From IMG/VR virus record IMGVR_UViG_3300045988_154391: 64,000 nucleotides of DNA. The stretch is one strand, 5' to 3'. Numbering within the stretch: position 1 is the stretch's first letter; every line of letters begins with the position of its first letter. Source of the DNA: a virus (taxonomy: Duplodnaviria > Heunggongvirae > Uroviricota > Caudoviricetes). The notes beneath the pieces were generated by a model. That model was given only the letters and a program-made list of their open reading frames with translations. It was not told the origin of the DNA and searched no databases. Both the position numbers and the translations under genes were made by a program. Shown here piece by piece: positions 52,789-60,023 of the stretch.

Positions 52789-53118
52789 AGTTACGGCCTC
52801 GTAAGTTGATAAACAACCTGCGACCCGCTGTCAAACAGGTGGCAGGACGTGACAGGGTTGACAGACTGGCACTTACGAAACCAGCAGGCCGAAGCCTCCC
52901 CATCACGCCCCACCATAATTCGGGCGTAACGTGGTTTTACGGACACAAAAATACCGCAATATCGGAAATGTGCGGTTGTCCGCGTAAGTATTCAGGCTGT
53001 CAAACCTGGTCGCAGAATTTGCTGCGACGGCGGAACTATAAGCCTGAACGATTAAAAGGTCAATATGATGCGAAAAGATAGCATTCGTGACTTAAAAATA
53101 CAAATTTATTAGAGCATT

Positions 53119-53135
53119 GTTTGTTTAATAAATAC
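53119..53135. promoter_or_regulatory. C1-operator-like 17-mer (16/17) upstream of the icd-ant leader
   Basis: AAATTTATTAGAGCAtT. Confidence 0.5.
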
Positions 53136-53214
53136 ACAAATGGATCTAATAACCTCTTTTTTTTAAAGGCGAAAATATGTACCCTAAATGAGTTATAAGG
53201 CAGGTGAGGTTATA

Positions 53215-53862
53215 ATGAGAAAACTATTACTACCGTTATTATTTATGGCTGGGACTGTTAATGCAGCATCAAGCGTAAAGGAGATTTGTACCGATTATAC
53301 GAAATACCTTGGGCACGTTTACGGCTTTGCTGTCAGTCAAGACGAATCCATGCGCAAGAAGTTACTGTCAGATATGAAACGCCTTAAACTTTCTGAAGCG
53401 ATGGTGCAGCAAGAACTGTATAAAGTCGCAACCAACGAAAATGCTAAATATCAATATTCTCGCCTGTTAAATCCCGACGCAAACGAGATCAATCGAAGCT
53501 CTTTCGATTATATGGTAAAGGCATGCGAAACCGCTCCTGATTTTGCTATCCCTAGCTGGGGTGTGCTGGTGGCGAGCAATGCCGTTAATAAAGAAGACGT
53601 TGGAAGAAATGGCATTGATTCAATCAGAAACGCCCCGGGAATGCGCCATCAAAACGTGCAGGGTACGCTTGAAGAGCGGGCCAGGGGGCCGGGTACAAAC
53701 TCCCCAATGGGAAACCTCTCACCAGAGGAATTGCAAGAGTATAACCAACGGATGGAGCAGTATGAGAAAGCGGCACGCGAACAAATGGAACAACAAAAGA
53801 ACGGCTCACTTAATACCTTCCAGCAAGGTTTAAAAGCGCTTAATTTACCCTATGAATGGTAA
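53215..53862 (+). CDS. Secreted protein, possibly Sim-like superinfection exclusion
   Basis: ORF 53188..53862 trimmed to the Met of a signal peptide (MRKLLLPLLFMAGTVNAAS); low GC; shares VQGTLEERARG with Sit. Confidence 0.4.
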   Translation: MRKLLLPLLFMAGTVNAASSVKEICTDYTKYLGHVYGFAVSQDESMRKKLLSDMKRLKLSEAMVQQELYKVATNENAKYQYSRLLNPDANEINRSSFDYMVKACETAPDFAIPSWGVLVASNAVNKEDVGRNGIDSIRNAPGMRHQNVQGTLEERARGPGTNSPMGNLSPEELQEYNQRMEQYEKAAREQMEQQKNGSLNTFQQGLKALNLPYEW

Positions 53863-53923: not shown

Positions 53924-54400
53924 ATGCGCATCAAACGATTTTTTCTAATTCTTGCTTTGCTTACTCCATTTTCATCAATGGCAAATGTAAGCAAATGGTC
54001 AACCGGCGAGACTCATGGTGTTCGTTCTTATGCTGTTTCCAGCAAAGATAATTATACGCTTACATTTGAGTGCGATGTTGGATTTAATAATACGGATCCC
54101 AATCAAGTAGGAACACGACTACTCACTCTCATGAAAACAGAACCTGGCGGTGAGTCATTTGATGCTAAAAAAGAACAAATAACGCTGAAAGTTGGTGATG
54201 ATGAATATCCTATCAGTTCTATCGGTTCCTCTGTGGGTGATAGTTACTGGTATGGTTTTTGGTCAGATACCCCTGATATGGAAGTTAAAACATTCGATGC
54301 ATACGTAGACGGAAAAAAAATCGCAACATTTACGCTATGTAAGGCCGCAGAGCTTTTCAACGCGGCACCTGAAGATGGCTGCCTGAAGCGCGCAAAATGA
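53924..54400 (+). CDS. Secreted protein of unknown function
   Basis: 158 aa; signal peptide MRIKRFFLILALLTPFSSMANV; low GC. Confidence 0.4.
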   Translation: MRIKRFFLILALLTPFSSMANVSKWSTGETHGVRSYAVSSKDNYTLTFECDVGFNNTDPNQVGTRLLTLMKTEPGGESFDAKKEQITLKVGDDEYPISSIGSSVGDSYWYGFWSDTPDMEVKTFDAYVDGKKIATFTLCKAAELFNAAPEDGCLKRAK

Positions 54401-56624: not shown

Positions 56625-59600
56625 ATGGAAAGAAAAAACGCCAACATTGACGATGTTATAAGGACAGTTGAAACCGCCAGCGCAAAAGAGCTGGAAGAGC
56701 TTGCAGGTATCCGGGAAGCTGTTGAAGATTTGAAAGGGGGACGCGTTGCAACTGTTGATCCTGTCTCTCGCAGTGTGTCGGCATTAAATCGCACAATCGA
56801 AAATTCCCGGCCAGACTTTGTGGCCAATGCGCCATCAGTGGACCCTATTGTTGAGGCAATGAAACGGCTTAATTTAGGGGACGTTCCTCGTGTAGTTCAG
56901 GAGGATGTTGCTCTACAGGAACCGCAGGCCAAATCAACTACGCGAAAGGGTAAAAAACGAGGCAGGAAGGCTATAACAGAAGATGTAAAGGCGCAACGGA
57001 CCGAAGCAGCCGAACACGCCCGCGAAATGTTCGGTCAAAAAGGCGGTACGCAAAAAAGCCAAAACCAACGCGATGCGCGTGGTCGTTTTATTGGAAAGTC
57101 AGGGAGTAAGGCCGCAGCGGAAGATGCCCGTGCTGAACGCGCTGAAAAGACCAGGCGCAAAGAGGATGATGAGCGTCTAAATGCTGAATCAGGTTTATTA
57201 AAAAAACTGTCAAAAGTAGCTGAAGGTATAGGTAACCCTTCAGAGACTCGTGCCGTCGATGCTTTAGGTTATGCCGTTGCTGGCCCATTGTGGGCAGCGG
57301 GGAAAGAGCTTGGCGGGATATCAAAAGAAGTTGGCGGATCGCTTAATGGTGCCAGAAAGTCTATTGCCGATGTGATTCGTGGCAATGACGATAACAGCCG
57401 TAAAAAAGGTTTTTTTAGGCGTAAATCGCAAAGTAGTGCCGATGTCGTTCAGGTTAACACCCAAAAACGGACGATTCAGGAACTTCAGGATCAGACCAGC
57501 GAAATTAAAGAGGGCAATGACAAGATTCTCAGCGCCCTTGATCAGATAGCCAAAAACACCGGGAAAAAGAAGGGCGGCTTGCTGTCCAAATTATTTAGCC
57601 TGTTAGGGAAGGGGGCCGGTGGTATTGCTTCCCTCATTTTTGGCCGTGGGGCACTAAAGAAAGTTGGCTCGATGGCACTAGGCGCTTTAGGTATAAAAAA
57701 AGTTGCAAGCTTATTGGGCTTTGGTGGGAAAAAGGCTGCTGCCAAAGAAGCTGGCGAATTGGCTACTCGCGGTGCCGGAAAACTTGCAACTAAGGGATTG
57801 GGGAAACTAGGTGTTAAGGCACTTGCAAAGGGGGTTTTACGCGCAATTCCCCTAGTCGGCACAGTGGCTGGAGGTATTTATGATGCGGTAACCGGTTGGA
57901 ATGATACAGAAGCGCAACGTCGAGCGTTTGGGCTTAAATCAGGACAAGATCCATCATTCCAGCAAAAAGCCGCTTATACGTTAGCCAATGTTCTTGATAT
58001 GGGGGGACTGGTATCTGGTATTAGCAGCGCCATTGGTGAGGTTCTCAAATCACTTGGATTTGAGGATATCGGCAATATGTTGCAATCATTTTCGACGGAA
58101 AGTATTGCTCAGGCCATTGATAGTGGGATTACCAACTTAGAAACATATATTTCTAACCTTGGTGACACCATATCCACAACATTCAACGATTACACAGCCA
58201 AGATTGGCGATGCTATTTCAGCCTGGTTCAGTGACACAACCAAGAGTCTGAACGAAAAATTAGACGCCATCAAAGACTTCTTTACTGTCGATAACCTGAA
58301 ACAGGTTTTCAGTGATGCAATTGATAGTGCAATTGATTTCATTAAGAACCCAGGGAAATACATTAAAGAAGCTGGCAGTAATCTATGGAGTGCCGCAAAA
58401 GAGCTTTCAGGTGAGGTTGCAGATGCCGCTGTTCAGAGCACCCCAGTGGCCTGGGTTGCATCAAAGCTAGTCAATAAAGCGGATGCGAAAGAGGTTACAC
58501 CTGAATTAAAAACACCTGCTAAAGAACGTCAGGAGGACAATGCTCCTAAGACTGAATATACCTCTAAAAAGGCTAATATTGTCACTCGTGTTGTAAATGC
58601 ATCCCTAGATACGGCGAAAGATAGCAATAAAACAGTTAAAGAAACTGCCAATCAGATAATCAATGCAAATGCCGTAGAAACGGGCAATAGCGCGTTGCAG
58701 AAAATTGATAAAGCTATTGGTCAAAATAGCTCGTCATCATCGTCGCTTAATACCACTGGCACCAGGAATGACATTCAGAAAGCTGCGGATACCTACAACA
58801 ATGGCAACTTGGATGTAAAAGTCGGAAGTCTTGGCGCTGAAGGTAAGGCAAATCTCGATAAGTTGGCTCCGTATTTTGCCGAACTAGAGAATAAATACGG
58901 TCTTCCAGAAGGCACTCTTTACGCGATTGCTGCAACTGAATCTGGTGGTAATCCGTATGCAAAATCCCAAACCGGTGCTCTGGGGATGTTTCAGTTCACG
59001 GGGATTGCTCGTGAAGAGACTGGCTTAGCTGAAGGTGAATCGTTTGATCCTGTGAAATCGGCAGAAGCTGCGGCTCTTCTCATGAGCAAATATCTGAAGC
59101 AAGCCAATGGAGACTTAAACGAGGCCATCACTGCATATAATGCTGGGTTTGGCACTATCAATAAGTGGAAAAAAGGCACAGGTGACTTATCGAAAGAAAA
59201 CCGTGAGTACGCGATCAAGGTCAATACTCATCGTGCTCGCTATTTAGGTGGTGAAATCTATACACCTGGAGCAGGAGCACAGGGTGGGGCGCAATATGGA
59301 GTGAGGGGACCACTGCCTGATAACGCTGTTATCGATCAGTCTACTGGCCTGGCGTTTACCCCTGGTGATAGCCCGTTTGAGAAAGGCGGTCTGGTAGACA
59401 AAATTGGCAATGCTGTTGGCGTTAACGATCTGGTCAACAAATTCATGAATGGCCGGGGTATGCGTCGGGAAGTCGTTCAGGGAACGCTCGAAGAACGTGC
59501 ACGAGGGAAGGGGACCGCAACAGCAGCTGGCAATGTGTATGTTGATACTCCGATGCCAGTTGAAGAGGCGCGTCCGGTGGCCAGCAACTCAAGTTACTTT

Positions 59601-60023
59601 GACCAACTCGGCGCACAAATGGGGATTGATGGACTATTTGATAAACTCCGCAACTCGCCGGGGATGCGGAAAAATAATGCGCCTGAACCAGCCTCCACGT
59701 CCCAGGTGACGACTGCCGCCAACGATTTGCAGCAACCAACCGGTCGTATGCAGATAGACGGACAGGTTATTAGTGACCTTGGCGGCTCCGGTGCCAAGCC
59801 GACAATGCAGTTGGCTGATAATACCGTTTCACTTGATGGTGAAACGAAGCGGCTGTTTGCGCAGATGACCTCATTGCTTGCCAGGATTGAAGAGCACACT
59901 AAAGACTCGGCGAAAGGCCAGGGAACTGTCGTAAAGGTCAGCACGCCTCAACCGGGCGTTATGCGCACGGTGCCACTGTCAATTGATGATCCGTTGATGA
60001 ATGACTACGCGAGAGTTGATTGA
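56625..60023 (+). CDS. sit: Tape-measure-like protein with lytic transglycosylase (SLT) domain
   Basis: 1132 aa; Gly-rich hydrophobic central segment; SLT motifs AIAATESGGNPYA...GALGMFQF...AYNAG. Confidence 0.8.
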   Translation: MERKNANIDDVIRTVETASAKELEELAGIREAVEDLKGGRVATVDPVSRSVSALNRTIENSRPDFVANAPSVDPIVEAMKRLNLGDVPRVVQEDVALQEPQAKSTTRKGKKRGRKAITEDVKAQRTEAAEHAREMFGQKGGTQKSQNQRDARGRFIGKSGSKAAAEDARAERAEKTRRKEDDERLNAESGLLKKLSKVAEGIGNPSETRAVDALGYAVAGPLWAAGKELGGISKEVGGSLNGARKSIADVIRGNDDNSRKKGFFRRKSQSSADVVQVNTQKRTIQELQDQTSEIKEGNDKILSALDQIAKNTGKKKGGLLSKLFSLLGKGAGGIASLIFGRGALKKVGSMALGALGIKKVASLLGFGGKKAAAKEAGELATRGAGKLATKGLGKLGVKALAKGVLRAIPLVGTVAGGIYDAVTGWNDTEAQRRAFGLKSGQDPSFQQKAAYTLANVLDMGGLVSGISSAIGEVLKSLGFEDIGNMLQSFSTESIAQAIDSGITNLETYISNLGDTISTTFNDYTAKIGDAISAWFSDTTKSLNEKLDAIKDFFTVDNLKQVFSDAIDSAIDFIKNPGKYIKEAGSNLWSAAKELSGEVADAAVQSTPVAWVASKLVNKADAKEVTPELKTPAKERQEDNAPKTEYTSKKANIVTRVVNASLDTAKDSNKTVKETANQIINANAVETGNSALQKIDKAIGQNSSSSSSLNTTGTRNDIQKAADTYNNGNLDVKVGSLGAEGKANLDKLAPYFAELENKYGLPEGTLYAIAATESGGNPYAKSQTGALGMFQFTGIAREETGLAEGESFDPVKSAEAAALLMSKYLKQANGDLNEAITAYNAGFGTINKWKKGTGDLSKENREYAIKVNTHRARYLGGEIYTPGAGAQGGAQYGVRGPLPDNAVIDQSTGLAFTPGDSPFEKGGLVDKIGNAVGVNDLVNKFMNGRGMRREVVQGTLEERARGKGTATAAGNVYVDTPMPVEEARPVASNSSYFDQLGAQMGIDGLFDKLRNSPGMRKNNAPEPASTSQVTTAANDLQQPTGRMQIDGQVISDLGGSGAKPTMQLADNTVSLDGETKRLFAQMTSLLARIEEHTKDSAKGQGTVVKVSTPQPGVMRTVPLSIDDPLMNDYARVD

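Follow-up and report, generated by a model that had tools for sequence, protein, structure and literature searches.

The window, by which we mean the whole 64,000-nt stretch of DNA analyzed here, is a P1-like (Punavirus) phage-plasmid. From 53.2 kb onward, its plus strand encodes, in this order, a 215-aa protein, a 158-aa protein, pmgC, tub, pmgB, sit, pmgA, bplA, gene 16 and R, and the ant, icd and c4 genes lie on the minus strand upstream of the 215-aa gene. The nearest relative over the whole of this sim locus is phage vB_EcoM-Ro157c2YLVW; P1 and P7 resemble it in the flanks only. The features considered in this study are the following.

53102–53118, minus strand: C1 repressor operator (Oc4/Op51), AAATTTATTAGAGCATT, aligning with the annotated P1 Oc4 (L001 3003–3019), in the divergent control region of c4 and the simA-like gene
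53202–53209, plus strand: Shine-Dalgarno-like sequence AGGTGAGG, read from the sequence, 5 nt before the ATG at 53215
53215–53265, plus strand: Sec-type signal peptide MRKLLLPLLFMAGTVNA, with cleavage predicted by inspection between VNA and AS
53266–53604, plus strand: folded all-helical N-terminal domain, residues 18–130, with invariant C25 and C104
53605–53718, plus strand: linear motif resembling that of Sit, within a linker predicted to be disordered, residues 131–168, core GIDSIRNAPGMRHQNVQGTLEERARGPGTNSPMGNL (BLASTP against Sit, E = 5e-9)
53719–53862, plus strand: variable C-terminal tail and stop codon, with an AF2-predicted helix at about residues 170–196
53924–54400, plus strand: second secreted protein, 158 aa, YfjT family (phrog_3429, E = 6e-80)
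56625–60023, plus strand: sit, tape-measure protein with an SLT lytic transglycosylase domain (Pfam SLT, E = 8.8e-27, residues 750–859, 58872–59201)
59442–59537, plus strand: Sit motif copy 1, residues 940–971, FMNGRGMRREVVQGTLEERARGKGTATAAGNV, from the alignment, present in all 12 divergent Sits compared
59577–59678, plus strand: Sit half-motif copy 2, VASNSSYFDQLGAQMGIDGLFDKLRNSPGMRKNN, reading VASN..GID..RNSPGMR (tblastn E = 0.17 on its own)

The open reading frame of the 215-aa protein can begin at 53188 or 53215 and ends at 53862 on the plus strand, and its product from 53215 starts with MRKLLLPLLFMAGTVNA followed by ASS. We favor the start at 53215 over the upstream ATG because of the Shine-Dalgarno-like sequence located 5 nt before it; in the P1 annotation, simA starts at the ATG equivalent to 53188. 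The operator and control region is nearly identical in the window and P1. A promoter scan 5' of the gene gave no strong sigma-70 site, and the only conserved promoter there is PsimA, which is annotated in P1 as a prediction. In the P1 annotation, the late promoter LPsit lies downstream of the sim genes, which are thus not part of the tail operon.

The N-terminus of the 215-aa protein has the layout of a signal peptide, as judged by inspection, with an n-region of MRK, a 12-residue hydrophobic core (LLLPLLFMAGTV) and the predicted cleavage site. N16, A17 and S19 are invariant in the alignment of 22 family members, and AF2 gave pLDDT values below 50 for residues 1–15. The preliminary description of this DNA would have given up its proposal if a cleavable signal peptide had been lacking; such a peptide is predicted and is conserved in the family. 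Its sequence contains no lipobox cysteine, and the protein is predicted to be Sec-exported and periplasmic. When modeled with the family alignment, residues 21–120 are all helical with block-mean pLDDT values of 90–96, and this orphan domain is probably disulfide-bonded. The linker that carries the motif has a pLDDT of about 47 and a short helix at LEERA. A PTP-like phytase assignment (PF14566) was considered and rejected: the match scored 26.7 bits against a cutoff of 27 and covered profile positions 46–132 only, the Cys-x5-Arg loop is missing, the sole candidate cysteine (C104, in CETAPDF) has no Arg at +6, and more distant family members did not match. The gene had also been called low in GC, which applies only mildly (45.1%, the window as a whole having 47.6%), and the segment with the motif reaches 56.6%.

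The protein had been placed where P1 keeps sim, divergent from the immunity-I block. We confirmed this position and found that the gene is an intact orthologue of simA, which is unrelated to SimC. Residues 1–48 are 85% identical to P1 SimA (tblastn), and the window at 53080–53360 is nearly identical to P1 (L001 2985–3260) through Oc4, the predicted PsimA and the first ~45 codons. In P1, simA ends where a GAA codon has become TAA, and the ATG from which simB starts is the equivalent of internal codon Met46 in the intact gene; beyond this point, the two sequences diverge completely. Judged by these alignments, simA is all that is left in P1 of a gene that the window has in full, the rest having been replaced by simB–simC. 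P1 SimA (P1_gp043, 52 aa, "putative superimmunity accessory function") thus shares its locus, upstream region and signal peptide with the window protein, but it is a stub without the helical domain and the Sit-like motif, both of which the window protein has. P1 SimC is likewise a signal-peptide protein of the same operon, but it lacks the Sit-like motif and any sequence similarity to the 215-aa protein (best BLASTP E = 28); the 158-aa neighbor is also unrelated to SimC. The P1 annotation assigns superimmunity to SimC, and the P1 Sim/SimC protein was reportedly described in papers of 1989–1990 as a processed exclusion protein.

An intact gene and simBC may occur together: a contig from the Logan assembly of ERR4338330 (L016 480–2214) contains in tandem an intact gene for a 179-aa SimA-like protein with the full motif and the genes for homologues of SimB (59% identity) and SimC (44% identity). 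P7 has a third cassette, which encodes a lipoprotein and a DUF5384 protein, and the alternative cassettes of P1 and P7 likewise encode signal-peptide proteins or lipoproteins. The sim region is one of the eight variable regions of P1-like plasmids (PMC9603915). In the papers that we searched or read, we found no mention of the simA truncation or of the Sit motif.

The 215-aa protein belongs to phrog_3933 (E = 5e-137 over its full length), and the names given to its homologues at NCBI include "simA domain protein". A word-index search found 28 family clusters, and when 1.84 billion representatives were scanned in full by HMMER with a profile of the family, only 11 proteins matched. All members with examinable context are in P1-like elements of Escherichia, Salmonella, Klebsiella and Cronobacter and occupy the same locus; in the window and 10 further loci, the gene lies between the c4/icd/ant block and pmgC on the strand opposite to c4. 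A gene for a secreted YfjT-family protein comes next at most loci, with the simB and simC homologues in its place in L016. This YfjT-like gene is a conserved partner 3' of the SimA-like gene and is sometimes duplicated (L015); the homologues of the 158-aa protein in relatives (PF27224, YfjT) are 28–63% identical to it. In the elements carrying a 163-aa SimA-like variant, a 394-aa open reading frame with a weak SH3_3 match lies between the YfjT-like gene and pmgC (L017 1467–2651) and is a further cargo gene at the sim hot spot. Salmonella-type elements (L009, L011, L013 and L015) carry toxin–antitoxin pairs, either PrlF/YhaV or Gp49 with dnstrm_HI1420, upstream of ant beside the immunity-I block, and no such pair was found at this place in the window.

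Among 5,426 complete E. coli genomes, 251 carry at least part of the gene and 81 of these have it in full length, nearly always on plasmids and annotated as "hypothetical protein". In PLSDB, 267 plasmids matched, 84 of them over the full length.

The protein has a peptide in common with Sit, the tape-measure protein of P1 (PMC12810830, PMC10695390), which is essential (PMC10695390) and was not resolved in the cryo-EM structure of the P1 virion (PMC12810830). Residues 122–168 of the 215-aa protein align with residues 929–971 of Sit with 23 identities over 47 positions (BLASTP, E = 5e-9), and a tblastn search of the whole window with the 215-aa protein returned the Sit match at E = 1.4e-7. The profiles match reciprocally: the 215-aa protein hits the Sit profile phrog_2533 at positions 929–972 (E = 8e-8), and the Sit C-terminus hits phrog_3933 at positions 129–169 (E = 3.7e-8). 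The resemblance that had been noticed in the sequence is thus borne out. Its core was described as an 11-residue motif, and VQGTLEERARG indeed comprises 11 consecutive identities, but the common element is longer, spanning 32–47 residues in two halves, (F/I)xNxxGMR(H/Q)Q and xV(Q/E)G(T/S)LxERA(R/Y)GxG. The peptides were present at the places given for them with offsets of 1–3 nt, NAPGMR...GPGT occupying 53629–53697 and GRGMR...GKGT 59451–59516. Within the real open reading frames of the window, N..GMR occurs only at the site in the 215-aa gene and at two sites in sit.

The peptide is conserved while its codons differ, as had been stated. In a 32-codon core (53623–53718 versus 59442–59537), 19 residues are identical, five of them with the same codon (one being Met) and 14 with different codons, and the nucleotide identity is 58/96. 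Because the codons have diverged while the peptide was kept, the two segments do not stem from a recent DNA duplication.

In Sit, the motif is located ~80 residues C-terminal of the SLT domain, inside a conserved block starting at TGLAFTPGDSPFEKGG, and all 12 divergent Sits have (D/N)(L/M)xxKF(M/L)NxxGMRxxxV(Q/E)GT(L/I)xxRA(Y/R)(G/S)xG. The C-terminal 233 residues of the window's Sit are 96–100% identical to those of P1 and P7. When residues 700–1132 of Sit were modeled with AF2 from a shallow alignment of 10 similar sequences, the SLT domain alone was folded, and the motif was of low confidence with the same short helix as in the 215-aa protein. The motif thus falls in a segment predicted to be disordered (pLDDT < 50) in both proteins, and both copies look like linear motifs in flexible regions in these models.

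The second partial copy reported in Sit, LRNSPGMRK, is real and lies at about 59646–59672. It sits in a ~60-aa insertion (59538–59720, Sit residues about 972–1032) of E. coli-lineage Sits, which has the pattern GIDGLxDKLxNxxGMR, corresponding to the first half of the motif only, and varies between strains; the insertion is absent in the Sits of Salmonella, Klebsiella and Cronobacter. Capture of this copy from a simA-like gene is less likely than an internal partial duplication of copy 1, because copy 2 keeps the GxxLxDK(L/F)xN spacing of Sit.

For scans of large collections, a degenerate DNA pattern was derived from GMRxxxV(Q/E)G(T/S)LxxRA by back-translation. In IMG/VR, at least 134 matches were obtained in at least 120 stretches, and all 134 of the matches listed fall in Sit-type or SimA-like reading frames of P1-like contigs. 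In 185,579 genomes, one for each species (596 Gb), all five matches lie in P1-like Sit or SimA-like genes, and none lies in a host chromosomal protein. About 0.1–0.5 matches would be expected by chance, as estimated from the information content. Since every listed match falls in one of the two families, the motif is not a low-complexity feature common to unrelated proteins, an outcome that the preliminary description had named as fatal to its proposal. Short contigs in GTDB metagenome-assembled genomes labelled Paenibacillus intestinavium and Bacillota (L139 and L140) encode Sit of the P1 type and SimA-like sequences. Over the parts compared, these agree with their E. coli counterparts, and they are most likely binning contamination. 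A search with a 44-residue motif profile gave 14 candidates and missed Sit itself, its word-index step being unsuited to this use, and we used the DNA pattern scans instead. When the C-terminus of Sit was used as the query for homologues, all that came back were incomplete pieces of Sit from Escherichia and Salmonella, with no new contexts.

Within the SimA family, N139, G142, M143, R144 and Q146 are nearly invariant, and the sequences divide into two tail types after the NxxGMR half. Type A members (those of the window, P0013, P0019, P0020, P0022, P0028, P0003 and P0048) continue with xV(Q/E)G(T/S)LxxRA(R/Y)GxG as in Sit; among them, P0003 is the 163-aa variant, which ends directly after the motif, and the motif of P0028, FLNSPGMRHQKVEGTLAERAYGKGTSTAMGNLS, is almost the Sit sequence. 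In type B, which makes up about half of the family variants (JK004, P0009, P0010, P0014, P0015 and P0023–27), unrelated Cys-containing modules replace the second half. The 11-residue block is dispensable in these lineages, since only the NxxGMR half is retained there. P0048, the most distant member, which is found on contigs of about 1 kb, retains NAPGMRHQAVKGSMAERARGDGT; because this deepest branch is of type A, the family probably started out with the full motif. Between the window gene and distant orthologues, pS is about 0.9 (saturated) and pN is 0.2–0.35, and in the deepest comparison, that with P0048, the motif region is 58% identical and the folded domain 40%. These comparisons support the view that the motif is old and kept by purifying selection, and the pattern scans support its restriction to Sit and the SimA-like family.

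Several database variants of 205 aa (P0002, P0004, P0005, P0007, P0008 and P0017) are frameshifted into the +1 frame, in the region corresponding to window 53543–53833; in P0004 and P0005, the shift occurs right after ERARG at a G5 run at about 53682–53686. These variants could be assembly errors, decay or slippage, and the gene may decay easily.

Our tentative reading, which we hold at somewhat below an even chance, is that the 215-aa protein is a periplasmic exclusion factor whose copy of the Sit motif competes for the partner of Sit. As the first gene of a variable sim operon with exported products only, the gene encodes an intact SimA that, as we infer, is expressed from the prophage and exported by Sec, so that the helical domain and flexible linker would display the two-half motif in the periplasm. 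Incoming Sit would be ejected into this compartment at infection, by analogy with other tape-measure proteins. The linker motif might then occupy whatever the Sit motif has to engage, be it Sit itself or a component of the host envelope. Passage through the cell wall or the forming of a channel would stall, which may block superinfecting P1-like phages. Interference with superinfection is the most likely role because an exported prophage protein and virion Sit would meet only in the periplasm. The SimA-like motif fits its own Sit weakly, and not clearly, better than it fits foreign Sits (core, 12 genomes: permutation P = 0.22); for the full motif, P = 0.02 in six type A genomes, which are non-independent. 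NAPGMRHQ occurs in both the SimA-like protein and the Sit of one genome (L007). Against an exclusion role, P1 discarded most of simA, and its superimmunity is credited to the unrelated SimC. The missing second half of the motif in type B, the weak promoter evidence and the frequent frameshifted variants in databases also count against it.

The same compartment and locus arguments would serve a T4 Spackle-like reading, in which the helical domain or the motif binds incoming Sit directly and blocks the SLT domain or co-assembles with it motif to motif. The wall of the lysogen would then be protected and superinfection excluded, with the motif as a self-association element and no third party to compete for. 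The short distance between the SLT domain and the Sit motif and the position of the latter inside the conserved block fit such contact, and there is a hint of matching in that LEERARG is found in the Sit and SimA-like proteins of E. coli and LAERAYG in other Sits; we nevertheless regard direct binding as unlikely. We give a similarly low probability to the reading that both proteins attach independently to the same envelope component, such as peptidoglycan, a PBP/hydrolase complex or a periplasmic chaperone, and that the SimA-like protein and its YfjT-like partner form a lysogenic-conversion or envelope-modulating factor with no part in exclusion. The near identity of the motif across Escherichia, Salmonella, Klebsiella and Cronobacter elements would suit a conserved host target, the half-motif standing alone in type B and in Sit copy 2 is as expected of a modular docking peptide, and the secreted partner is conserved. 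However, a protein occupying the site of Sit would compete with incoming Sit, so that this reading shades into the competitive one, and the family is confined to P1-like elements, at the sim locus in the examples examined.

It is also conceivable, though very improbable, that a fragment of sit was captured by the neighboring gene, or the reverse, through illegitimate recombination and that the motif has no function of its own. The two genes are only about 3 kb apart, and shuffling is apparent in the C-terminal tails of the SimA-like proteins. A relic is, however, hard to reconcile with a motif better conserved than the folded domain in the deepest comparison, where synonymous sites are saturated, or with near-invariant N139, G142, M143 and R144 in a segment predicted to be disordered. 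That the resemblance arose by chance or through low complexity has a negligible probability in view of the pairwise E value, the reciprocal profile matches and the confinement of all listed pattern matches to two families where fewer than one match was expected.

If the competitive reading is taken one step further, the protein could be a case of self-mimicry: an exported decoy would show the peptide with which Sit engages an essential entry factor of the periplasm or inner membrane, the tails would be arms-race variants, and simBC would be a later replacement. We consider this extended version doubtful. Were it true, the NxxGMR/VQGTLxERAxG peptide would mark the DNA entry step of P1 and provide a handle for the host factor.

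Phage T4 offers two counterparts. Spackle inhibits the tail lysozyme gp5 in the periplasm. Imm and Spackle are phage envelope proteins that stop the genome delivery of relatives through ejected tail-lumen or tail-tip proteins, as we propose for the 215-aa protein, but no sequence or fold relationship to either was detected, and neither, to our knowledge, carries a motif copied from its target. The exclusion protein Imm has been described as binding the tape-measure protein and acting on it (bioRxiv 10.64898/2026.03.06.709160). The Ltp protein of TP-J34, from the phages of Streptococcus and Lactococcus, is an exported helical protein expressed by a prophage; it is reported to target the tape-measure protein and to stop DNA entry at that step (PMC3952083). 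Ltp is, however, a lipoprotein of Gram-positive hosts, whereas the 215-aa protein lacks a lipobox and any homology to Ltp that we could detect; more generally, we found no fold or sequence relationship to solved Spackle-like or Ltp-like exclusion proteins. Short-linear-motif mimicry has been described for eukaryotic viruses and bacterial effectors. There, as here, a conserved disordered peptide is copied between otherwise unrelated proteins, but the protein copied is one of the host, whereas the source of the motif considered here is a structural protein that the phage itself injects. We know of no documented phage exclusion system built on a motif of the phage's own structural protein.

It is plausible, then, that the gene represents a new and testable variant of tape-measure-directed exclusion. 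The peptide can be mutated on both sides, in the secreted protein and in Sit, which offers a handle for fishing out the P1 entry factor and for testing mimicry-based exclusion. The classic sim locus of P1 can also be reread, with simA as the remnant of a larger gene that is still intact in about one third of the complete E. coli genomes with any part of it (81/251), on their P1-like plasmids.
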